Of a stretch of DNA of 64,000 bases, positions 35,106-46,898 are shown in pieces (position 1 is the first letter of the stretch; every line of letters starts with the position of its first letter). A program made the position numbers and the translations under genes. The notes beneath the pieces are model-generated. The model had not been told where the DNA came from, made no database searches, and saw only the letters and a list, made by a program, of their open reading frames with translations. This DNA is from an uncultured Ignavibacteria bacterium (lineage in GTDB: Bacteria; Bacteroidota; Ignavibacteria; Kapaibacteriales; UBA2268): assembly GCA_903862655.1 (NCBI GenBank), contig CAIOZA010000015.1:24324-88323 (forward strand). Reading direction: 5' to 3'.

Positions 35106-36560
35106 TTGCTTTGCTCACTTCTAATAGCCTTATCAATTATTAATCGTTTTGAATCATATTCGATAAAGAAACTTTACGAAAAAGCCAATTCTATCGGGAT
35201 GATTACTGCCTACCATCTCGGGATTGCAATACATAGCAATAACAGAGAAAGAATAGATGAAGAGATCAGAATTTCGAAAATGAACCCTGATGTGGAGTAT
35301 CTTATTGTAACCGACACCCAAAATATGATGATAGCAGAAGCTAATCCCGATAAAGCCATCATTTTAAATTTTAAAATGAATCCCACTCAACACTTGCCTC
35401 TATCTGTTGAGGGGTCTGCTGTCCGTTTGTATATGCCTATCAAATACGACAATCTAACAGTTGGGCATCTTTATTTAGCTTTATCTGCTTCAGAATTCAT
35501 GGATAGTCTCCATACTCTAAAAATTTCTACTTATCTGATAGGGATTATATTTGTTGCTTTCTTCTTATTGGTTATTAAGTTGTTAAGTAATTATATAACA
35601 AGACCAATCAAGGAGTTCATCAAAGTTATTGATCACATATCAATTGGAAATCTCAACGAAAGAATTGAATTCTCTGCGACAGACGAATTTGGAAAGCTAA
35701 GTCAGGCATTCAATGATATGCTCGAACGACTTGAATTGGTACAGGAAGATCTCCATAATGAAATCGACGTAAGACGCATTACTGAAGATCAGCTGCGTGA
35801 CGCTCAAGAGGAGATGGCTCAGGCACTTCTCTATGAAAAAGATCTGAACCTGATGAAATCTAATTTCGTTACAACTGTTTCACATGAGTACAGGACTCCA
35901 TTGACTGTTATTATGTCCTCTACATACCTCCTTCAAAAATTTCATGAGAGGGGCATGGCTGAGGGTTTCGACAAGCAACTTCAACAGATTCAAACAGCTG
36001 TCAACAGCATGATTAAACTTTTGGATGACGTACTCGTAATCAATAGGAATGATCTTACGAGACATGCTGTGAGATTTTCAACTCTTGAAGTTATTGATTT
36101 CTGTAAAAATATTTCTCAAAGAGTCAAGGATTCAGATAAACATCATCATACTTTCGAATTTTTAGCAGAGCAGCCAAGCCTTTATTTCAAGACCGATCCA
36201 AACTTATTGTCCGGTATAGTTAACGGGCTTCTCTCGAATGCTGTCAAATACTCACCCCCTGATACTAATATAACAATTGCTGTTATTGAAATCGGAAATT
36301 TCCTTGTGATTGAAATTAAAGATAAAGGTTTAGGAATTCCAGAGAAGGATCTGCCACACATTTATGAATCATTTTATCGGGGTTCGAACATAATATCAGC
36401 CGAAGGTAATGGGCTAGGACTAACAATCATCAAAAGATATGTCGATTTACTTCAAGGTAAAATAGTTGTTGATTCAAAGGTCGGTGAAGGCACAACAATT
36501 TCAATTCACATCCCACGCGACAATAACTTTGCCGGTAGCGAACAGATACTGCCGTTTTAA
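35106..36560 (+). CDS. Membrane HAMP sensor histidine kinase
   Basis: TM-periplasmic-TM, HAMP (DEFGKLSQAFNDM), SHEYRTPL, SNAVKYS and GNGLGL. The frame stays open upstream (YRNLPFRRKLFLSFGTILL), so the true start is probably further 5'. Confidence 0.9.
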   Translation: MLCSLLIALSIINRFESYSIKKLYEKANSIGMITAYHLGIAIHSNNRERIDEEIRISKMNPDVEYLIVTDTQNMMIAEANPDKAIILNFKMNPTQHLPLSVEGSAVRLYMPIKYDNLTVGHLYLALSASEFMDSLHTLKISTYLIGIIFVAFFLLVIKLLSNYITRPIKEFIKVIDHISIGNLNERIEFSATDEFGKLSQAFNDMLERLELVQEDLHNEIDVRRITEDQLRDAQEEMAQALLYEKDLNLMKSNFVTTVSHEYRTPLTVIMSSTYLLQKFHERGMAEGFDKQLQQIQTAVNSMIKLLDDVLVINRNDLTRHAVRFSTLEVIDFCKNISQRVKDSDKHHHTFEFLAEQPSLYFKTDPNLLSGIVNGLLSNAVKYSPPDTNITIAVIEIGNFLVIEIKDKGLGIPEKDLPHIYESFYRGSNIISAEGNGLGLTIIKRYVDLLQGKIVVDSKVGEGTTISIHIPRDNNFAGSEQILPF

Positions 36561-36590
36561 ATAAAATACAAAGAGTTAAAAATATTCTGT

Positions 36591-36804
36591 AGACAAGTAA
36601 GGATGCTTGTCCTATTTGTGTTGGGTAGGCTAAACATCCTTGATTGACCATTGTTTTCAATTAATCCCAATAGAATAAACGCAATTCCAAAACCGTATTC
36701 TAAATTCGATGGAATTAAGAATACTGAATATAATATTTTGCGGACAATCAGGGATGCATGTCCTACGGTGTATCGGGTAGGTCAATCATCCTTGATTGAG
36801 CATT
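36591..36804. repeat. Two tandem degenerate GTAG-type REP doublets
   Basis: 36591-36652 and 36742-36804 share GACAA...GGATGC.TGTCCTA...GGGTAGG...CATCCTTGATTGA.CATT. Each unit is an inverted pair with CTAC/GTAG-like inner ends. Confidence 0.7.
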
Positions 36805-36807
36805 CTA

Positions 36808-37659
36808 TTAAATATCTTCTAAGCTTGTAATCCATGAATTACCTTTAACAACAGAATCATCGGGAATCTTTATTCTGCCAAGAATCGTTGCATTAGCATA
36901 GATTACAACATTGTTGCCAATCTCGGGATGGCGTGGCAGTCCTTTGATTGGTTGTCCGTTCTCATCGAGCGGAAATTTTTTTGCACCCAGAGTAACTCCC
37001 TGGTAAAGCCTGACATTTTTGCCTATTATACAAGTTTCGCCTATAACTACACCTGTTCCATGGTCGATGAAGAATGACTCTCCTATCGATGCTCCGGGGT
37101 GGATATCAATACCTGTGAGCGAATGTGCTATTTCGTTTATCATTCTCGGAATTATCGGAACATCAAGAAGCGATAGTTCGTGAGCAATCCTGTGATAAGT
37201 CAAAGCAATTATGCCGGGATAGCAGTAAAGAACCTCTTCGTAATTCTTAGCAGCCGGATCGCCGTTGAAAGCTGCTGCAATGTCGCTAATTATGAGCTTC
37301 TTTAGTTTAGGAATCTCATTCAAGAATCCATTACATATATCCTTCGATGTAGTTTCACATTCCCTGCACTTAGGCTCTCTTTCTAAGCAGCTGAAGCAGA
37401 ATCCGCGCTTAATCTGCTCGGAAAGCAAGCGTTGGATTATATCAAGATTTGCACCGATGTAATATTGAATTGAATGAGGGTTTATCTCAGTATAACCCCA
37501 AAAACCCGGAAACAGAACTTTCTTGATACTTGTAATTATTTCATTAAGGATATTAATATCCGGCATTGGCTTGTCGCTTGCTGATCTCCTGTTCAGAAAA
37601 GGATGTTCCTCAGTTTGGCTTAGTTCTTCAACTAATCTGTCGAATTCATTTTTTAACAT
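36808..37659 (-). CDS. cysE: Serine O-acetyltransferase
   Basis: GDPAA, YPG...HRIAHEL, TGIDIHPGASIG.SFFIDHGTGVVIGET, YQGVTLGA and RHP. Confidence 0.93.
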   Translation of the reverse strand: MLKNEFDRLVEELSQTEEHPFLNRRSASDKPMPDINILNEIITSIKKVLFPGFWGYTEINPHSIQYYIGANLDIIQRLLSEQIKRGFCFSCLEREPKCRECETTSKDICNGFLNEIPKLKKLIISDIAAAFNGDPAAKNYEEVLYCYPGIIALTYHRIAHELSLLDVPIIPRMINEIAHSLTGIDIHPGASIGESFFIDHGTGVVIGETCIIGKNVRLYQGVTLGAKKFPLDENGQPIKGLPRHPEIGNNVVIYANATILGRIKIPDDSVVKGNSWITSLEDI

Positions 37660-37667
37660 TGTTAATC

Positions 37668-38600
37668 CTATACTTCAATATCGGCAAATAAATCAGTGCT
37701 CAGGTATCTCTCTGCCGTATCGGGCAAAACACAAACGATTAGCTTGCCTGCGTTTTCGCTTCTGTTTGCTACTTGAATTGCAGCATGAAGCACAGCACCG
37801 CATGATATTCCAATAAGCAGTCCTTCCTCGCAGATTGCTCTCTTTGCTGTCTGAATGGCTTCGACAGATGATACGGGGATAATCTCATCTATGATTCCTG
37901 TATTAAGAATATCAGGAACAAAACCTGCACCGATCCCCTGAATTTTATGCGGTGAATGTGTACCGCCAGCAAGTATCTGTGATTCAAATGGCTCGACTGC
38001 GATAGATTTAATGGATGGTTTCCTTGCTTTGAGAACTTCGGATACGCCGGTGATTGTGCCTCCTGTGCCAACACCGGCAATGAATATATCTATTTTCCCA
38101 TCAGTATCATTCCAGATTTCTTCTGCCGTAGTTTTACGATGAATCTCAGGATTGGAAAGATTCTTGAACTGCTGAGGTATAAACGAACTATCGAACGTGG
38201 CTGCCAGCTCAATAGCCTTATTAATGGCTCCTGTCATACCTAGAGATGCCGGAGTCAGAACTATTTCTGCACCGAAGCGTCTGATAACTTTGCGACGTTC
38301 GATGCTCATACTCTCAGGCATGGTGCAGATAAGTCTGTAACCTTTTACTGCACAGGTGAAAGCCAAGCCAATGCCTGTGTTGCCGCTTGTTGGCTCGATA
38401 ATGACGGTTCCCGGTTTGACCAGTCCCTGCGTTTCTGCATCGGAGACCATTGCCCATGCGATCCTGTCCTTGATTGAACTGCATGGATTGAACATTTCCA
38501 GCTTTGCTACAAGTTCAGCCGGAGCTCCCTTTGTAAGTTTGTTGATTTTGACCAAAGGCGTGTTGCCGATAAGGTCTCCTATATTTTGATGAATGCGCAT
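37668..38600 (-). CDS. cysK: Cysteine synthase A
   Basis: [53 protein letters not shown] and ERYLST. ATG 38600 with GGAG RBS is preferred over 38669. Confidence 0.96.
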
Positions 38601-38991
38601 AGCATCTCCTATTTTTAAATTAAATAACCGCTTTGAATAAAAGTAACAAAAAAAACGCACCTCTGACAAGTCAAAGGAGCGTAAAATGTATAAAGTCTAA
38701 TTAAATGAAAGTTACAATTGTTCTTTATCTCAACCGGTTAATTTCTAAAACGATGCAAGTATATTCTTTATTGTTTTTATAAATAAATTGGTGTAAATTG
38801 TATTTTTTCGGCAAAACGGACAAATTAGTGAATAGCCGGAATAGAGCACCAAAAGGAACGCTACAGACTATTTTCAAAATCCGTGAGACGTTTTGCGTTT
38901 TTCTGTGTCATTATATAATAAGATGTGACAATTTTAGAAAAAGTTTTATGAATCCGAAAAAATATTTAAACAAAATATATTGGATAGAATT

Positions 38992-41169
38992 ATGAATAAT
39001 CTTAAACTTGTATTGTTTGCATTAATGTTTATGCTATTTACCGTCGACTGTTTTTGCCAAATAGGATCTAAACCAATTCCAAATGATCAACTTGGTGAAA
39101 TTTATTCGTTTGCTTTTCGCAATGATGGTTATCTCTATGCCGGAGGAAGCACTATGCCAGGCTTTCTCGTTTCAAGTAACAAAGGAGATACCTGGAGCTT
39201 AGTTGATGAGGGAATTTACAACTCTATTATATATTATTATTTTACCCAAAAATTCTTATATGTAATTGATATTAATGGTAGTTTGCATCAGTTATCAAAA
39301 AATGGAGGATTAAAGCGAATAACACCCGAAAGTGATAATGACTACGTTACAGTTTTCTTAGCTGATTCAAATGCTGATATATATTATGGCACCGATAATG
39401 GTTATTTGTATAAATCGATTGATAACGGTGCTACCTTTACTGAACTCTTTTATCAGGATAATACTAGTGGCATAGGATGCTTTTTCATTTATAATAACGA
39501 TATGTATTTAGGTGTCGGGGGTAAAGGAATTTTTAAATCAATAGATCAGGGTTCAACCTGGCAGGAATTCACTGACGGAGTAGATTCAAAGAATGCTGTT
39601 AAATTTGTAATCAATCCTAATGACACTAATCTGTATTTTATTGACAGATATTCGGGTTTATACAAGTTATCTGAAGATGGAAGCCAATGGACAGTAGTTG
39701 ATAATATTCATTGTCAATATCTGTTAACGGATTTAATCGTTTCAAAAGGCTCAATGTATTTATCTACGGAAAACAAAGGGATATTTAAATCATTGGATAA
39801 TGGTATTTCATGGCAACAGTTAGCAGTTGGTCTGATTAATTCATCAATTACAATTGCAGCAGATTCATCAGGAGTATTATTCACTTCTGATATGGTTAAT
39901 TGTTATAAATCCACAAATAACGGAGATGAATGGATTTGTTTTACAAATTCGAATCAAAAGACTACTGTTAATACTATTCTAACAGATGCTAAAGGTTCAA
40001 TTTACTGCACAATAAATAATGACATATATTACAGTACTGATTCCGGTAATAATTGGAAAATAATTTCTCGTCCTGACAATAATACTAATTTTACTAACTT
40101 GAAAATTATAAATGATACAATCTTGTGTATCATTTATCAAGAAAATGATGAGTTGTATTATTCTAGTAACAAAGGAGAAGAATGGAATCAAGTAAACTTT
40201 GAAGATAACAACTTCAAATATTTAGTTGATATTTGTTCTGGAAAAAATAAGGATATATTTATTTTAAGTGCTTTTTCAGTATTTGCTTCAACGGATTTGT
40301 CAATCAACCAGAAAAAGTTATCAAATGTTGGAAAGTATTATATTTTAAATGATAGTATTGAAATAGCAACATTGGGTTTGAATATAAATTCAAAAAATGA
40401 AATTTATATTTTTCATGAATTATCAATTGTTACAAAATCAACAGATCTAGGTCAAACTTGGAATTTATTGAAAAGTATTAATAGTTTTGATGATTATGTT
40501 CCAAGTGTTATTAAATTAGAGTTCAATAGTAAGAATGAGATTTATTATTTAGATACTGATGGCTTCTTATTTAAATCAGTTGATGATTTTAAAACATCAA
40601 TAAATTTAAATAAAGCATTTCTTGATGCTTCCGATGGGATTTCTTCATTTGTTATAAATTCCAAAGATTATATCTTTATCGGTACTAATTTTGGTAAGAT
40701 ATACTATACAGTTGATGGTGGGATTAATTGGGAATTATTTAATTCACCACTTAGTGTTAAAAAAACATATGACACACCGCTTTCAATTGAGAAACGAATC
40801 TACTCATTAGGATTGGATAAAAATGAAAATCTAATTGTTGGTACTGATAAAGGGATTTTAAAAACAAATCTATCTACCACTGACCCAGAAACTGAACTAA
40901 ATATTGAAACTGATACAGATTTATCAAATATAACAATCTCTCCCAATCCCGCTTCTGATTTCATAGAAATATCAGACATCAACCCCATGCTTAAGCATGG
41001 GGTTGAATACTCAAATATCAGGATATTTAATGTATTTGGGCAGAATGTGTCATCAACTTGGGCGGGTTTAGAACCCGCCCCTACAATACGAATTGATGTA
41101 TCTGGCTTGGCTCCGGGCATGTATTTTGTGAGGATTGGGGATAGAGATCAAAAGTTTATTAAAATTTAA
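38992..41169 (+). CDS. T9SS-secreted BNR/Asp-box beta-propeller protein
   Basis: Signal peptide, many S.D.G.TW repeats, C-terminal ISPNPASD...GMYFVRIG...KFIKI; ATG 38992 preferred. Confidence 0.88.
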   Translation: MNNLKLVLFALMFMLFTVDCFCQIGSKPIPNDQLGEIYSFAFRNDGYLYAGGSTMPGFLVSSNKGDTWSLVDEGIYNSIIYYYFTQKFLYVIDINGSLHQLSKNGGLKRITPESDNDYVTVFLADSNADIYYGTDNGYLYKSIDNGATFTELFYQDNTSGIGCFFIYNNDMYLGVGGKGIFKSIDQGSTWQEFTDGVDSKNAVKFVINPNDTNLYFIDRYSGLYKLSEDGSQWTVVDNIHCQYLLTDLIVSKGSMYLSTENKGIFKSLDNGISWQQLAVGLINSSITIAADSSGVLFTSDMVNCYKSTNNGDEWICFTNSNQKTTVNTILTDAKGSIYCTINNDIYYSTDSGNNWKIISRPDNNTNFTNLKIINDTILCIIYQENDELYYSSNKGEEWNQVNFEDNNFKYLVDICSGKNKDIFILSAFSVFASTDLSINQKKLSNVGKYYILNDSIEIATLGLNINSKNEIYIFHELSIVTKSTDLGQTWNLLKSINSFDDYVPSVIKLEFNSKNEIYYLDTDGFLFKSVDDFKTSINLNKAFLDASDGISSFVINSKDYIFIGTNFGKIYYTVDGGINWELFNSPLSVKKTYDTPLSIEKRIYSLGLDKNENLIVGTDKGILKTNLSTTDPETELNIETDTDLSNITISPNPASDFIEISDINPMLKHGVEYSNIRIFNVFGQNVSSTWAGLEPAPTIRIDVSGLAPGMYFVRIGDRDQKFIKI
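40979..41084. repeat. Two in-frame REP-like palindromes inside the CTD coding sequence
   Basis: Perfect 28-bp palindrome TCAACCCCATGCTTAAGCATGGGGTTGA (40979-41006) and GGGCGGGTT-TAG-AACCCGCCC-CTAC (41060-41084). Confidence 0.85.
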
Positions 41170-41180
41170 GGATTATCATA

Positions 41181-42653
41181 ATGAAAAAGTTGCTGGTTAT
41201 TCTATGGTTAATCTCAGCCGAGATAGTATTTGGGCAGACATCAGGCTGGGAATATCGTTACATTTATAAAGAACAGATGCTAAAAATTAATAAATTGAAT
41301 GCTGTTCATTTCAATGAAGATGGCAGTAAATTCTATACTTTACATGCTAATAAAATAGTGTATTATTGGGATTCAAAGTCAGGCACTCTACTTGATTCTT
41401 TGATAATTCCTGAAGATTATACTACAGCAGTTTTTTCTAAGGATGGCCGAACTTTGTGCTACTATTTACCTATCACTTCTACGATGGGAGTTTATTTTAG
41501 CGTAAATGTATTTATTTATGATTTATTTACAAAAAAGAGAATTGCAAAGTCAATCTTTAATGGTCCTAAGGATATCAATTATATTAAACCATACACAAAT
41601 TTAGGTTATATAGATTATCCTAGGGTGCTTTCTATTCTTGATTTTGATTATAATTCTTATGTTCTAAAAGCAGGTGTTTATTTCACATATTACTGGAGAG
41701 AGGGACCCATACAGGCAGATTATGAACACCGTTATTCATGTGGTGGATTGGCATTCTTTGCAATAAATAAGGATAGCGTCTATAAGATTGGGCAAGCTAC
41801 GACTGCACATACCCTTGATTATCTTAAAACAGGCGATTCTGATTATATGACTCTACAGAGTAGTTCAAGAGACTATGGTGGTTCCAGTTCACTTAGGAAC
41901 GATGTCACAGAATCTAATATGGTATTCTCTAAAATCGATACGTTAACTGGAAAGTACAAACAGCTAAAAGCATTTAATCAAAAAATAGTATATAGTTGGG
42001 TACAAGGAAGTAATCCTGTTAATTATACATCAGGAACAAACAGACCCTTTTCAAAAATATATTACGACAGCACGAATAGTTTAGTATACGTAAAAGCACT
42101 TGATATATATTATGTCTTTGATACCAAAACTGATTCTTTAGTTGATTCTGTGAAGTTGGAAGGTAGTATCGGACTTGAGAGAATAACAAAGGATTTTTCT
42201 CATATCATATATTATTATAATAAGAAAATAATAGTATTAAATTTGAAGACGAAAGTAATGTATGATTGGATGTCCTGCCCTATGGTGCCTGTTTCTTTGG
42301 ATTTAACACCGAATAATAATGACATAATAGTTGCAAATGACTCAGGCAAAATTTTTTATTATTACACAATTTTATCCGATGTTAAAGATAGAATAAATGT
42401 TGAAGAAATGAGTATCTCTCCCAATCCTGCCTCTGATTTCATTGAAATATCCGTAGGGGCGAACGGCAGTTCGCCCTTACAAAGCGATGTGAGGATATAT
42501 GACGTGCTTGGAGAAATCCAGACCACCCCGTCACTTCGTGACACCCCTCCTTGGAAAGGAGGGGCAAAAGCAAGAATCGACGTTTCCTCCTTGGCTCCCG
42601 GCATGTATTTTGTGAGGATTGGGGATAGAGTTCAAAAGTTTGTGAAAATATAA
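41181..42653 (+). CDS. T9SS-secreted WD40-like beta-propeller protein
   Basis: Signal peptide, FNEDGSK, FSKDGRTL and LTPNNND repeats, C-terminal ISPNPASD...GMYFVRIG...KFVKI. Confidence 0.85.
   Translation: MKKLLVILWLISAEIVFGQTSGWEYRYIYKEQMLKINKLNAVHFNEDGSKFYTLHANKIVYYWDSKSGTLLDSLIIPEDYTTAVFSKDGRTLCYYLPITSTMGVYFSVNVFIYDLFTKKRIAKSIFNGPKDINYIKPYTNLGYIDYPRVLSILDFDYNSYVLKAGVYFTYYWREGPIQADYEHRYSCGGLAFFAINKDSVYKIGQATTAHTLDYLKTGDSDYMTLQSSSRDYGGSSSLRNDVTESNMVFSKIDTLTGKYKQLKAFNQKIVYSWVQGSNPVNYTSGTNRPFSKIYYDSTNSLVYVKALDIYYVFDTKTDSLVDSVKLEGSIGLERITKDFSHIIYYYNKKIIVLNLKTKVMYDWMSCPMVPVSLDLTPNNNDIIVANDSGKIFYYYTILSDVKDRINVEEMSISPNPASDFIEISVGANGSSPLQSDVRIYDVLGEIQTTPSLRDTPPWKGGAKARIDVSSLAPGMYFVRIGDRVQKFVKI
42453..42564. 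repeat. Two in-frame REP-like palindromes inside the CTD coding sequence
   Basis: GTAGGGGCGAAC-GGCA-GTTCGCCCTTAC (42453-42480) and the double hairpin GTCAC-TTC-GTGAC-A-CCCCTCCTT-GGA-AAGGAGGGG (42530-42564). Confidence 0.85.
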
Positions 42654-42661
42654 GAACAAAA

Positions 42662-44038
42662 GTGATGAAAAAACAGATGATAGCTTTGATATGTTTCTTA
42701 TTGTTTCTAAAAAGTGTAAATGCAGAATGGATTCCAGTTAGAGTTGAACCATCACCACTTTTTCCGAATGATTCAATTAATATGAATATTATTTTCTCTG
42801 GAATGGATTGTGCCGATTCTATAAATTGTTTTGCGGCTGGTAATGATGCTTATCGTTATAGAATAGTCTATCAAACAACAGATGCAGGTAGAAATTGGAA
42901 TATTTTATATAAACCTGATTTCAATTCAGGAATTAAAGACCAATTCCCTTTATTACGGTCTATAGCCTATCCTACAATTTATAAATCCGTTATTGGTTGT
43001 GATTCAGGAGTTGTTATTAAAACTGGTGATGGAGGTAAGAATTGGTCAAGAATAAATACTCCAATTTTCTATGAAGATAATTATCCTGAATATAAGCAAA
43101 TTAATACTGTAAAAATGTTAAATGAAAAGGTTGGGATTGCTTGTTCTGGACAATATTTGATTTATACAAGCGATGGGGGTAATTATTGGTCATACTTGTC
43201 AAAACCGGATTCTAATATGAGTAGTATTACAGGCGTTGAAATCTTTACACCGGAAACCATTTATATCAGAGTTAGTTGCTGGACAATTGATAAAGAATGT
43301 CCATTTAAGTTTTCATTATTCAGAACTAATGATCTTGGGAAGCATTGGCAGTCTTACGATTTTTCAAATATAGGTAGTATGGGAAAAATGTTTTTTGCCG
43401 ATTCCCTGAATGGTTGGATGGTCGGCGGTGACCCAAATGGAATAGGTGACCAGCAAATTGCTAAAATTGGAGCAACAAAAGACGGTGGTCGAACATGGTC
43501 AATACAATTTAGAGATTCATTAGAACCAATGGTTATGCCATTATTCGATGTTTCATTTTATGATAGAAATAATGGTATAGCTGTAGGTAGAATTGGTTCA
43601 ACATTGAGAACTACCAACGGAGGACTAAACTGGATTCCTGATAACATTCCCGTTGATTTAACAAAACCTTACATAATTAATCCGGTTACTTGTTTCAGAA
43701 ATGTTAAAGTACCTCTTTTTTATGGTTTACCCGGAAGGATTTATTATTATGCATCTACTTCAGATGTTTATGATAATTATATGCAATCAACTGGTTGGTT
43801 TATTTCCCCCAATCCAACAACCGATTTCATTAATGTATTTGTAAGGGCGGGTTCAGAACCCGCCCCTACAGGCGAGATAAGGATATATAATGTCTTTGGG
43901 CAGATCGTATCCACCCCTAACCCCACCCCAACCCTCCCCGCAAGCAGGGAGGGAGTAAGAATGGATGTCTCCGGCTTGGCTCCGGGGATGTATTTTGTCA
44001 GGATTGGGGATAGAGTTCAAAAGTTTATAAAGTTGTAG
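42662..44038 (+). CDS. T9SS-secreted YCF48/BNR-repeat beta-propeller protein
   Basis: Signal peptide, T.DGG.NW repeats, FFADSLNGWMVG, C-terminal ISPNPTTD...GMYFVRIG...KFIKL. Confidence 0.88.
   Translation: MMKKQMIALICFLLFLKSVNAEWIPVRVEPSPLFPNDSINMNIIFSGMDCADSINCFAAGNDAYRYRIVYQTTDAGRNWNILYKPDFNSGIKDQFPLLRSIAYPTIYKSVIGCDSGVVIKTGDGGKNWSRINTPIFYEDNYPEYKQINTVKMLNEKVGIACSGQYLIYTSDGGNYWSYLSKPDSNMSSITGVEIFTPETIYIRVSCWTIDKECPFKFSLFRTNDLGKHWQSYDFSNIGSMGKMFFADSLNGWMVGGDPNGIGDQQIAKIGATKDGGRTWSIQFRDSLEPMVMPLFDVSFYDRNNGIAVGRIGSTLRTTNGGLNWIPDNIPVDLTKPYIINPVTCFRNVKVPLFYGLPGRIYYYASTSDVYDNYMQSTGWFISPNPTTDFINVFVRAGSEPAPTGEIRIYNVFGQIVSTPNPTPTLPASREGVRMDVSGLAPGMYFVRIGDRVQKFIKL
43840..43955. repeat. Two in-frame REP-like palindromes inside the CTD coding sequence
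   Basis: TGTAAGGGCGGGTT-CAG-AACCCGCCCCTACA (43840-43870) and CCCCACCCCAACCCTCCCCGCAAGCAGGGAGGGAG (43921-43955). Confidence 0.85.
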
Positions 44039-44087
44039 GATGCTTTTGGGTCATATTATCCCTAAATGCTGTCTATTATAAGCTAAA

Positions 44088-44783
44088 TTATAAGTTCATT
44101 GCAGAATCTGATCTGTTGATGTAATCACCGGGCATGTAGTCGGTAGTAGCTTTCAAATAGGATTGCAGCGCTTTGGTAGCAACCTGGCTTTGTGCATTTG
44201 GCATTTCAACCTTCTTAGGTGGAGTAGTTCCGCTTTCTGTAGCTGAAATCTCAGCTTGTTTTTGCCGTAACGATGAAATCCTAGCGTCGGCTGCAGCGGC
44301 TACTGCTCGATCCTGTGGAGAGGGATCAGCCGGAGCAAGAGCGGCTCTTCTGACTTGTTGCATCTTTGCGATGGAAGCATCAGGATTCTTGGAATCAACG
44401 GTGGAATCGATGCTGACTTCCCCTTCGATTGCGTATTGCTTGCCGTCGGGGCCGGTTATAGTTTTAAATGAGGCTCCACCGTGGACTAAACCTCCCCCGG
44501 CAGATAAATGCGCCTGCTCGTGGGTTCTGACGTTTTGGTCAGCTGCTTTTAACTGCTGTACTTGTTTTTCCTGTTCGGGAGTAAGAGTTTTCTGTCCTGT
44601 TGGCGGTTTTTTTGACGCGACTTTTTGTTCCGCGGCTTTTTGTCTGGGGTTGTCATTTTCGGGCTTTTTTATTTTTCCGGTAACCAGGTCATATTGAATA
44701 CCCGACAAAGACTTATTGTCGATTGAGTTGTAGGAGTTCAATCCATAAGTACTGCGGTTGCCGTTAATTGTTAAATCAGCCAT
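44088..44783 (-). CDS. SprA/SrpA-related protein (HExxH motif)
   Basis: LKAADQNVRTHEQAHLSAGG, GPDGKQYAIEGEVSID and RAALAPADPSPQDRAVAA. Confidence 0.85.
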   Translation of the reverse strand: MADLTINGNRSTYGLNSYNSIDNKSLSGIQYDLVTGKIKKPENDNPRQKAAEQKVASKKPPTGQKTLTPEQEKQVQQLKAADQNVRTHEQAHLSAGGGLVHGGASFKTITGPDGKQYAIEGEVSIDSTVDSKNPDASIAKMQQVRRAALAPADPSPQDRAVAAAADARISSLRQKQAEISATESGTTPPKKVEMPNAQSQVATKALQSYLKATTDYMPGDYINRSDSAMNL

Positions 44784-44933
44784 TAGCTTTAGCTCTTTAT
44801 ACTTTTTATATTAATATCGGTTAGAGACTTAAAAAACTTTACTTATTGACATCATTTCACTCAAAGTGATAAGAATCTTTCACCTATTATAGAAGTAAAA
44901 CCAGGCATTTTATTATAACATTTTTTCCAATAT

Positions 44934-46151
44934 TTATTTAATATTAATATAGAGGAAGCTACGTTTACCATATTTGATAAGTCTCTTTTCGGTAAAATCT
45001 GCCTTTGCAAAAGGATCGGCAACTTTTTCACCGTCAATTGATACGGCTCCCTGATCCAGCATTCTGCGTGCTTCTTTCTTGGATGTTGATAGTGCTGAAG
45101 CTACAAGAACATCTATCACCAATTGTTCTGAGTTTCCAATTTCGAGAGTAACTTCTTCTATTTCATCGGGAATATCTTTTTTGACGAAAATGCGTTCGAA
45201 TTCCTCGAATGCTCCCTGAGCAGAAGCTTCATCGTGATATAGGGCTACGACGGACATGGCTGCTTTGACCTTGGCATTGCGTGGATGAACAGTTCCATCT
45301 GCCAATCCTGCTTTCATGGCTAGAACTTCTTCTAGATGGGCAAAAGCACCATATTGTAAATAACGTGTGATCAGTTCGTCAGGAATGGACATTACTTTAC
45401 CGAACATCTCTCGCGGGGATTCGGTTATACCGATATAATTATTGAGGGATTTGCTCATCTTTTCAATTCCGTCGGTTCCTTCGAGTATCGGCATAGTGAG
45501 TATACATTGAGGTTCCTTGTCGTAGGCCTTCTGGATTTCACGTCCGACTAAAAGATTGAACTTTTGGTCGGTTCCGCCAAGCTCGACATCGGAATCAATA
45601 AAGACTGAATCAATAGCCTGAGCAAGGGGATAAAGAAGTTCATGCATGCTAATCGGCACACCGGCAGTAAATCTCTTAGTGAAATCGTCACGCTCAAGGA
45701 GCTGAGCCACAGTATATTTTGAGGCTAACTTTATAACATCCATAAATGTCATAGTTCCAAGCCATTCTGAGTTATAACGAACATCAAGACTATTTGCAGA
45801 TAAAATATGGGTTGCCTGCTCGAGATAAGTCTGACCATTGATTCTTGTCTCATCTATTGTCAAAGGAGGTCTGGTCTTGTTTTTACCGGATGGATCGCCA
45901 ATCATAGCTGTGAAGTCACCAATGATCAGGACAGCCTTATGACCAAGATCCTGGAACTGGCGCATCTTACGAAGCACCACCGCATGGCCGATATGAAGGT
46001 CGGGTTTGCTGGGATCGCATCCAAGCTTAATGACAAGCTGTTTATTGGCTTTAATCGATCTCTCGAGCTTTTGTACGAGTTCATCCTCGGGAAGCAATTC
46101 AATAACACCCGAGCGGATAAAATCCATCTGTTCGTTGACTGAGGGGAACAT
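44934..46151 (-). CDS. tyrS: Tyrosine--tRNA ligase
   Basis: GCDPSKPDLHIGH (HIGH), GGTDQKFN, KMSKS and C-terminal S4 domain. Confidence 0.97.
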   Translation of the reverse strand: MFPSVNEQMDFIRSGVIELLPEDELVQKLERSIKANKQLVIKLGCDPSKPDLHIGHAVVLRKMRQFQDLGHKAVLIIGDFTAMIGDPSGKNKTRPPLTIDETRINGQTYLEQATHILSANSLDVRYNSEWLGTMTFMDVIKLASKYTVAQLLERDDFTKRFTAGVPISMHELLYPLAQAIDSVFIDSDVELGGTDQKFNLLVGREIQKAYDKEPQCILTMPILEGTDGIEKMSKSLNNYIGITESPREMFGKVMSIPDELITRYLQYGAFAHLEEVLAMKAGLADGTVHPRNAKVKAAMSVVALYHDEASAQGAFEEFERIFVKKDIPDEIEEVTLEIGNSEQLVIDVLVASALSTSKKEARRMLDQGAVSIDGEKVADPFAKADFTEKRLIKYGKRSFLYINIK

Positions 46152-46193
46152 AGTATATATTATTATTTAATTACAGAAAAAATGATGTAAGAG

Positions 46194-46898
46194 TTAAGCA
46201 TCGGCTTCAAGATTATCGTCCTGAGGAACATCGCGCAATCTATACCCAACACCGCGAATGCTCTGAATCAATGGTTTTGTACCATCCTCACGTTCAATTT
46301 TTGCTCTGAGGCGTTTGATATAAACATCGATAATATTTGATTCAGGATCAAAATTGTGCTTCCATACATGCTGAGTAATTGTACTTCTGCTGAGAATACG
46401 ATTCTTATTCTTTAATAAATATTCAAGCAAACCATACTCTTTTGTGGTGAGTTCAATTTCCTTGTTAAAACGGAACCCCAAGTGAGATACTGTATCGAGA
46501 ACCAGATCGGCACATTTCATCTTTGTTGTTTTTTCCGGGCTGGAACGTCTTAGAATTGACCTAAGTCGAGCCGCAAGCTCTTCGAAGCTGAATGGTTTGG
46601 GCAGATAGTCATCAGCACCAAGATCTAAACCTTGTACCCTGTCCTCAGTTGTTCCGCGTGCAGTCAGCATAAGAATTGGAGTTACAAAACCAGCTTCTCT
46701 CAGCTCACGTAGAACTGTGAAGCCATCCTTGCCCGGAAGCATCACATCCAGAAGGATTGCATCGAATTCGTTATTCATAGCCATTTCGAGGCCTGTAACA
46801 CCATCGGCGGCGGTTTCTACAATATATCTTTCTTCTTCCAAGCCATGTTTAATGAAGCTGGCTACTTTTCTTTCGTCCTCAATTACTAGTATTTTCAC
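46194..46898 (-). CDS. OmpR-family response regulator
   Basis: ILVIEDE, LLDVMLPGKDG, GLDLGADDYLPKPF, NIIDVYIKRLR and RGVGY. Confidence 0.95.
   Translation of the reverse strand: MKILVIEDERKVASFIKHGLEEERYIVETAADGVTGLEMAMNNEFDAILLDVMLPGKDGFTVLRELREAGFVTPILMLTARGTTEDRVQGLDLGADDYLPKPFSFEELAARLRSILRRSSPEKTTKMKCADLVLDTVSHLGFRFNKEIELTTKEYGLLEYLLKNKNRILSRSTITQHVWKHNFDPESNIIDVYIKRLRAKIEREDGTKPLIQSIRGVGYRLRDVPQDDNLEADA

Follow-up and report, generated by a model that had tools for sequence, protein, structure and literature searches.

A type IX secretion tag encoded by a putatively exchangeable 3′ DNA module with palindrome-bearing loops in an uncultured Ignavibacteria bacterium

We analyzed a 64,000-nt stretch of contig CAIOZA010000015.1 (hereafter the window) from an uncultured Ignavibacteria bacterium, in which three head-to-tail genes with divergent front parts (passengers) end in nearly the same 3′ DNA. 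The shared piece encodes the C-terminal domain (CTD) that marks cargo of the type IX secretion system (T9SS). Our best explanation, to which we assign a probability of about 0.7, is that the CTD module is exchanged among paralogous genes, and that palindromes of the repetitive extragenic palindromic (REP) type are tolerated residents of its loops. According to this model, the ~230-bp CTD module would act as an exchangeable 3′ unit, with homologous recombination or gene conversion among paralogous CTDs moving whole or half modules between unrelated cargo genes and crossovers falling in three conserved coding frames. Two loop-coding sites between these frames would take up in-frame GC-rich palindromes, some of a GTAG-tagged REP type and others hairpins made of a C-run and a G-run; these would be selfish or neutral residents, reshuffled along with the module. 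The original prediction for this locus had described the array and its shared block and likened them to integron cassettes; the observation is confirmed, and the interpretation as a whole is partly supported.

The window comes from a metagenome assembly of 4.07 Mb in 148 contigs with 35.5% GC (G000; C-numbers denote its contigs). Comparisons were made with a congeneric sister species (G001, which contains the genes L006, L051 and L033) and with a genome from another genus (G009).

The shared tag and its subfamily

The possible secretion tag of the original prediction is a T9SS CTD of Pfam family PF18962 (Por_Secre_tail), which matches genes 1, 2 and 3 with 42.0, 40.2 and 38.4 bits (cut-off 27) and ends 2-3 residues short of the stop codon. 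On the plus strand, the CTD modules occupy 40936..41166 in gene 1 (residues 653-729, with the Pfam match spanning residues 653-727), 42414..42650 in gene 2 (residues 412-490, with homology bounded by the CTD start and the stop codon) and 43802..44035 in gene 3 (residues 381-458, as matched by Pfam). The 52-nt block that first drew attention to the array lies within these modules at 41106-41157, 42590-42641 and 43975-44026, also on the plus strand. Its copies vary at only four positions, and the pattern has three exact matches in the window against none expected from 100 dinucleotide-preserving shuffles. Copy 1 codes for LAPGMYFVRIGDRDQKF, and the block is the code for the last conserved CTD strands (..LAPGMYFVRIGDRVQKF..). 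A second conserved block at the CTD start (ATCTCTCCCAATCC..GATTTCAT) is equally visible in a three-way DNA alignment.

The three genes lie on the plus strand with spacers of 11 and 8 nt, as first described. Gene 1 (38980..41169, likely start ATG 38992; 729 aa) has a BNR/Sortilin-type beta-propeller passenger, with Pfam matches to Sortilin-Vps10 (1.3e-16), PSII_BNR and BNR. Gene 2 (41181..42653; 490 aa) has an orphan passenger with a weak WD40-like propeller match, and gene 3 (42662..44038; 458 aa) a Ycf48/BNR-type propeller (PSII_BNR, 4e-11). By inspection of the translations only, all three N-termini show the basic residues, hydrophobic stretch and small-residue site of a signal peptide. The passengers are AT-rich, as stated originally (GC 0.22-0.41 in 200-nt intervals), and GC rises to as much as 0.38-0.51 in intervals over the CTDs. 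From these features, the three genes are predicted to form a compact array encoding beta-propeller proteins that are secreted by the Sec and type IX routes, each with a type A T9SS CTD. An AlphaFold2 model of the gene 2 CTD has seven strands, with a mean pLDDT (predicted local distance difference test) of 76 and a pTM (predicted template modeling score) of 0.63. Two components of the secretion machinery were sought in G000: the SprA translocon (TIGR04189) scores 881.5 bits against a cut-off of 200, and the GldK model gave sub-threshold matches only.

The 52-nt block is not confined to the three genes, since a genome-wide count finds it at 45 places in G000 with up to 10 mismatches; after the three window copies, the next-best ones differ at 5-7 positions. 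From 309 candidate CTD proteins in G000, all 150 that were scored match PF18962, and our own iterated profile recognizes 264 CTD-bearing open reading frames (ORFs). Of these 264 CTDs, 63 belong to a subfamily that ends in ..GLAPGMYFVRIGD..KF.K., comprising 53 long and 10 short CTDs. Its members share three conserved frames (ISPNPASDFIEIS; ..VRIYNVFGQ..; and ..RIDVSGLAPGMYFVRIGD..KF.K..), with two variable sites, A and B, in between. The subfamily is genus-specific, with about 63 genes in G000 and dozens in the sister species. An exact 24-mer from the block was sought in 185,579 species, each represented by one genome, with the window genome's own records possibly left out of the set; it occurs at only 14 loci, all in a single other genome. 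A protein search returned 82 proteins with the subfamily CTD at 45-100% identity, and their passengers span many Pfam families, including BNR, WD40, Kelch, beta-helix, fn3 and peptidase C25.

G000 also contains at least five orphan CTD-only frames inside contigs (C147:6914-7361, C86:33595-33816, C33:9244-9483, and others on C19 and C28); on C147, two of them stand in tandem after a complete cargo gene. Unequal exchange may have left them behind, or they may act as silent donors.

Evidence for exchange of the tag module

The original prediction proposed that a ~230-bp CTD module had been copied or converted between unrelated genes. Four observations bear this out: passengers that are not homologous, homology bounded by the module, CTD halves with uncorrelated relationships, and CTD differences between species. 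The passengers of the three genes have no BLASTP match to each other. That of gene 2 has none in the rest of G000 or in G001, and those of genes 1 and 3 have relatives at 25-39% identity only. Congruent passenger and CTD trees, which had been named as a sign of simple duplication, are impossible here, as the passengers do not align and no passenger tree can be built. In comparisons with other genes, homology at the DNA level extends from the CTD start (query positions 458-467) to the stop codon (693-712). Because homology is confined in this way to the module, homologous recombination or gene conversion is the mechanism we infer.

Within the module, different parts have different closest relatives. 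The gene 1 CTD is a mosaic, in which the first 105 nt are 85% identical to a copy on C33 and the last 127-162 nt are 88-92% identical to copies on C24, C53, C31 and in G001, with the crossover at query positions 551-570, in conserved frame S2. The gene 2 CTD is alike over ~235 nt (86-88% identity) to one copy in G000 and six in G001, and a seventh G001 copy is 84.6% identical. The gene 3 CTD is 81% identical over its full length to a copy on C93, and its 3′ 155 nt are 90% identical to a copy on C147. Among the 53 long CTDs, the pairwise identity of 5′ halves shows next to no correlation with that of 3′ halves (r=0.08, 1378 pairs), and only eight CTDs have the same nearest neighbor for both halves. 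Six types of sequence at site A and ten at site B occur in many combinations, including 25 quartets of types in which all four combinations are present, and the mutual information between the two sites is 0.63, compared with 1.51 at full linkage.

These data contradict a plain tandem duplication after which the passengers diverged fast and strong purifying selection preserved the tag, an explanation without exchange to which we give almost no credence. The genes are indeed adjacent and co-oriented, and tails of adjacent genes are somewhat more alike than others (0.79 versus 0.75, 20 versus 1933 pairs, permutation p ~0.003, although the pairs are not independent); those of the three window genes, at 0.82-0.86 identity, are in the top 4-16% of pairs. 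However, passenger homology is undetectable, the synonymous sites in question are common to dozens of genes elsewhere, and the three genes carry six different palindrome/site combinations. Moreover, the nearest CTD relative of each window gene lies on another contig in either half, and in no case is it another window gene. The suggestion that the block serves as a junction for adding or exchanging whole genes finds no support.

Comparison with the sister species shows CTDs that differ between genes with like passengers; gene pairs were called orthologues by passenger identity only. The passengers of L006 and C121:13-3451 are 81.5% identical over 514 residues. The 5′ halves of their CTDs are nearly identical (91-96% at the DNA level in 45-nt intervals), whereas site B and the tail differ (58-82%), with the switch located after S2. 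L051 and its counterpart on C107 share 77% passenger identity over 355 residues and have wholly different CTD variants. L033 and its counterpart on C95, with passengers 48% identical, share a common junction, followed by a long CTD in L033 and a short one in C95. The two crossovers that could be placed, in gene 1 and in the C121/L006 pair, are thus in or beside frame S2, a position consistent with what homologous recombination would predict.

The array itself is not conserved in G001, so that the locus is not invariant between close relatives, as a static arrangement would have been. On the side of the PALP enzyme (83-84% DNA identity), the G001 sequence runs on into three HSP20 genes, thiolases, a lipocalin and one unrelated CTD gene. 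The side of the tyrosyl-tRNA synthetase (TyrRS) lies on a separate contig and adjoins an IS200-type gene.

The DNA-level identity beyond protein constraint that the original prediction described is also apparent genome-wide, in codons that are rare in the genome yet used at conserved residues and in a raised GC content at third codon positions (GC3). Among 56 tails, conserved residues are encoded by GTG in 37 of 53 cases (12% in the genome), AGG in 29 of 51 (13%), GGG in 36 of 55 (9%), TCC in 41 of 56 (10%) and CCG in 34 of 46 (15%). In the conserved frames of the subfamily, GC3 reaches 0.41; the passengers of the same genes have 0.28, as do the 201 other CTDs, and long ORFs across the genome have 0.31. 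This pattern fits a recent common ancestry of the module, and GC-biased conversion of the module possibly contributed. Exchange among paralogous CTDs would explain both why synonymous sites have been kept alike and why CTDs are mosaic. For calibration, housekeeping genes of G000 and G001 are 80-90% identical at the DNA level; because the gene 2 CTD is 86-88% identical across the two species, the CTD variants date from about the time of the split between them or later, and are not extremely recent.

Palindromes at the two loop sites

The window CTDs contain six perfect in-frame palindromes, two per CTD, which the original prediction overlooked. All are read on the plus strand. In gene 1, the site A palindrome (40979..41006) has a stem of 13 and a loop of 2 and is read as INPMLKHGVE; non-coding DNA at C44:52023-52050 contains a near copy, and C11:20670-20689 a related palindrome. 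The site B palindrome of gene 1 (41060..41080) is GGGCGGGTT-TAG-AACCCGCCC followed by CTAC. It is read as AGLEPAPT, is of the GTAG-tagged REP type, and also occurs between genes, as well as beside and inside a gene on C6 that resembles a REP-associated tyrosine transposase (RAYT). In gene 2, the site A palindrome (42457..42476) is preceded by GTAG and followed by TTAC, is read as GANGSSP and is again of the REP type; all 12 of its perfect-stem copies in G000 are within CTDs, and in G009 it is a non-coding repeat. The site B hairpin of gene 2 (42544..42564), read as TPPWKGG, is of the C-run/G-run type and has an intergenic copy at C86:9015 and an intergenic variant at C6:69948. In gene 3, the site A palindrome (43845..43865), read as AGSEPAP and followed by CTAC, belongs to the same REP family as site B of gene 1, so that the family GGGCGGGTT..AACCCGCCC occupies different sites in the two genes. 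The site B hairpin of gene 3 (43932..43953), a C-run/G-run type read as TLPASREG, has related intergenic copies with similar flanks at C26:108 and C6:69908.

Such structures are concentrated in the subfamily. At least one GC-rich hairpin with a stem of 7 or more is present in 43 of 53 long subfamily CTDs, in 1 of 10 short ones and in 5 of 201 other CTDs, but in none of 53 controls, stretches 240 nt upstream within these genes. Genome-wide, 38 of the 150 GC-rich perfect hairpins with a stem of at least 9 fall within CTDs, which make up 1.5% of the DNA. The perfect stems of CTD palindromes measure 7-14 bp, and the whole structures 16-30 nt. The model of the gene 2 CTD shows site A as a loop and is least confident at site B.

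Several palindrome types are of the REP kind. GTAG, CTAC or TTAC stands at an end of 38 of 40 perfect copies of four palindrome types. The C-run/G-run hairpins lack such a tag, yet they too have intergenic copies with similar flanks. Between genes, the CTD palindromes often form doublets, as at C95:53332-53392 and on C114, C122 and C93. In G009, we found 24 matches to the gene 2 site A palindrome, and the six examined (three in a tandem array and three elsewhere) are all non-coding. The tandem array, at L030 1481-2013 (contig C267 of G009), is a non-coding 235-bp repeat of 2.3 copies with 97% matches, and each unit contains a GGGCGAACGGCCGTTCGCCC-CTAC palindrome.

G000 has 14 Y1_Tnp matches, 13 of them above the Pfam cut-off. 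The RAYT-like ORF on C6 (C6:82361-82861, equivalent to L066:862-1362 on the minus strand) encodes 166 residues with the motifs NHLH, WQ and YIEFNP, and its best match is the NCBIfam model "REP-associated tyrosine transposase" (NF047646), at a sub-threshold score that is nevertheless above the 26 bits it has for IS200. It has a GTAG-tagged GGGCGGGTT palindrome just upstream and, in frame just after the HUH motif (..NHLHLILIIENSIRAGLESAPT..), a one-mismatch REP copy.

Two further repeat families were seen alongside these. A second Y1_Tnp gene, at C97:9656-10205, has CCACGAGCT..AGCTCGTGG hairpins on both sides with an AATAG/CTATT tag; this family, which served as a control REP, has 17 perfect copies, none of them in CTDs. 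A composite repeat of ~100 nt, which has inverted ends (gaaaccccc ... gggggtttc) and contains two hairpins, occurs at C24:70141, C93:21281, C121:36348 and C122:25293, in three of the four cases directly 3′ of the stop codon of a CTD gene. It looks like a miniature inverted-repeat transposable element or a terminator module.

Overall, the palindromes at sites A and B would be mobile repeats that are tolerated there because the tag is removed after export and because both sites are loops. The main alternative role for them, which we consider unlikely, is that of functional mRNA or DNA elements selected at the two sites, acting in mRNA stability, in translational pausing before the last signal strands or in co-regulation of T9SS cargo. 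The regular filling of the same two sites in long CTDs would fit such a role, as would the RNA fold of the gene 2 CTD (z = -3.58, compared with +0.57 for the 240 nt upstream). Pairing of stems has been preserved by at least five compensatory double changes that appear to be independent, and mismatches in the commonest palindrome are mostly G-T on the sense strand (43 versus 7 A-C), though most of these come from one common position. These counts of stem changes and mismatches cover the five GTAG types only, since typing of the short C-run/G-run hairpins, with 7 substitutions allowed in 16-22 nt, was too permissive and confused one type with another. Against a selected role, the same five types include many decayed stems, with 66 non-wobble mismatches, and ten subfamily CTDs have no typed palindrome at either site, only one of the ten having a GC-rich hairpin. 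Long and short CTD forms are swapped between genes whose passengers are alike. The same palindromes are ordinary intergenic repeats in G000 and in another genus, they bear the REP tag GTAG, and the genome contains a RAYT-like gene. In Rfam scans with E up to 1, neither the region nor ten CTD loci matched a known RNA family; all matches were below threshold and attributable to chance (whalefall-1 at 20.7 bits versus 37, and miRNA models).

A second alternative gives the palindromes an active part, driving tag exchange through fork stalling and template switching, or through RAYT-like cleavage at tagged hairpins, to yield half-module swaps. We regard this as quite unlikely. If it held, a ready-made T9SS tag could be grafted onto new genes, the lineage would have a dedicated way to recruit and reshuffle a very large secretome, and the orphan CTD-only fragments would be donor cassettes.

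Very unlikely, in our judgment, is a true cassette system, in which hairpin-directed site-specific or single-strand recombination, for example by a Y1 or RAYT transposase, adds, removes or exchanges genes or tags. The tagged hairpins in long modules and the Y1_Tnp matches in the genome would suit it, as would the orphan CTD fragments inside contigs and the absence of the array from the sister species, where an IS200-type gene lies beside tyrS. In addition, a contig from sequencing run X5 leaves the window sequence exactly at 42590, the start of block copy 2. This contig is, however, a single record at depth 3.5, and its departure could reflect a strain-level breakpoint at the block or a paralogue. 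The difference in G001 is a synteny break between two species rather than a clean gain or loss of a cassette. As the original prediction already stated, no recombinase is found, here among the ORFs of 35106-46898. There is no attC-like site 3′ of the ORFs, the hairpins being perfect palindromes of 16-29 nt within ORFs and not sites after the stop codon, and the placed crossovers fall in or beside a conserved coding frame. The integron-like part of the original prediction thus finds no support.

Returning to exchange by homologous recombination with tolerated palindromes, several points weigh against it. The best cross-species CTD pairs, at 88%, are within the 80-90% range of housekeeping genes, so part of the DNA likeness could reflect slow divergence under constraint rather than recent copying. 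Each palindrome type has only 2-18 perfect copies in G000. Ten CTD-associated palindromes have 68 perfect copies there, of which 45 are in CTDs, 1 is in another long ORF and 22 are outside long ORFs. This differs from classical REPs, which are mostly extragenic, and G000 does not show the many, mostly extragenic copies by which REPs are recognized, although repeats may be under-represented in the assembly. The RAYT-like ORF on C6 scores 63.4 bits, below the NCBIfam cut-off of 80 bits. The CTD of L013, from another genus, has hairpins of different sequence at the same two sites, and this, together with the few compensatory stem changes, could mean that hairpins are selected rather than tolerated.

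Finally, a ~230-bp module present in ~60 copies can give rise to chimeric joins, and contig ends coincide with at least four of the subfamily CTDs, so that an assembly artefact could underlie some of the mosaics or of the pairings between passenger and tag. Only two junctions are bridged by contigs from other studies. One from run X7 covers that between genes 1 and 2 (41053-41254) with no differences, and the X5 contig covers that between genes 2 and 3, fitting the window only from 42590 onward. Four DNA runs compared with the window gave short low-depth contigs only, with depth peaks at the three CTDs that reflect paralogues and other organisms. The "joints" between CTDs were taken for other CTD copies and not for deletion alleles, as most of them bear other palindromes between the same frames.

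Surroundings, known systems and implications

Upstream of gene 1, a non-coding leader at 38845..38952 on the plus strand recurs elsewhere. By blastn, ~100 nt of it have 78-92% identical copies at 19 other places in G000 (on 18 other contigs) and at one locus in G001, and all six copies checked by coordinates lie just 5′ of CTD cargo genes. Operons of CTD cargo genes thus appear to be bracketed by a common 5′ leader and a common 3′ tag. The flanking ORFs within 35106-46898 encode a histidine kinase, a hexapeptide transferase, the PALP enzyme, a SprA-related protein, TyrRS and a response regulator. The SprA-related protein (Pfam PF12118, 95 bits) is encoded by a minus-strand ORF of 231 residues at 44088-44783, convergent with gene 3, and has no counterpart beside tyrS in G001.

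A terminator scan found 10 sites against 3.3 expected, three of which are weak stems that coincide in part with the 52-nt block and precede ATGTATTTTGT. In genes 1 and 3, where the scan flagged the start of the block (41101-41128 and 43965-44001), the short stem reads ..CTCCGG-CTTGGCT-CCGGGG.. before ATGTATTTTGT; it is weak and lies within the ORF. A scan for sigma-70 promoters was uninformative (30 sites versus 30.8 expected).

The locus shares features with several known systems. As in other type A T9SS CTDs of PF18962, the tag sits at the extreme C-terminus of unrelated passengers, in a genome with SprA and hundreds of cargo genes. Here, in addition, one subfamily is alike at the DNA level over ~63 genes, is a mosaic of exchangeable halves and has two loops encoded by palindromes. 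Integron cassettes offer only the loose picture of an array of unrelated genes, each ending in a similar hairpin-bearing module. An attC site is an imperfect inverted repeat of 57-141 bp after each ORF, whereas the spacers here are 11 and 8 nt, and the hairpins are perfect palindromes of 20-28 nt inside ORFs. No integrase or attI was seen among the ORFs of 35106-46898 (no genome-wide IntI search was made), and the exchange that could be traced follows homology in coding frames.

Rickettsia palindromic elements (RPEs), reportedly described by Ogata et al. in 2000, are ~100-150 bp long and occur in many unrelated housekeeping genes. Like the palindromes described here, they are palindromic repeats in frame within coding genes, at positions that tolerate extra residues; they differ in being longer and in not occupying fixed sites of one shuffled domain. 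Closer in form are GTAG REPs within coding regions, which were described in scattered unrelated genes, often ones that act in DNA repair (Di Nocera, De Gregorio and Rocco 2013, PMC3733652). There too, short GTAG-tagged palindromes are read through in frame and add about 7-11 residues, though in scattered single genes rather than at two fixed sites of one paralogous tag module in dozens of genes.

REP insertion within tnpAREP genes has been presented as unique to subclass 2.4, with the signature NH[IFV]H / WQ / YIxNNP (Quentin et al. 2018, PMC6006769). The C6 ORF has motifs near this signature, a REP inside its own coding sequence and a GTAG-tagged copy upstream, and its likeness to the subclass is judged from these motifs and a sub-threshold NCBIfam score (63.4 versus 80 bits) rather than from a tree. 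The sections of that study consulted here mention no secretion tags.

T9SS CTDs, intragenic REPs and gene conversion are each known separately, and literature searches on T9SS CTDs, palindromes, gene conversion and intragenic REPs did not find their combination, an exchangeable tag DNA unit with loops that are the main home of REP-type palindromes. What is new here is a quantification of module and half-module exchange, along with the outcome of the tests set by the original prediction. For annotation, the palindromes account for recurrent odd peptides (such as GANGRSPLQ, AGLEPAPT and TLPASREG) in proteins of uncultured Ignavibacteria- and Kapabacteria-like bacteria. Arbitrary insertions are probably tolerated in the two CTD loops, a property of use to those who engineer T9SS reporters.

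T9SS tags are usually seen as protein-level signals; here, the tag would also be a DNA-level unit that moves between unrelated genes. The loops of a domain that is discarded after use may offer a natural "safe harbor" to REP-type palindromes, which bears on how selfish repeats persist in compact genomes. For a lineage with ~260 cargo genes, exchange of the module would provide a simple route by which exported proteins could be re-tagged or recruited.

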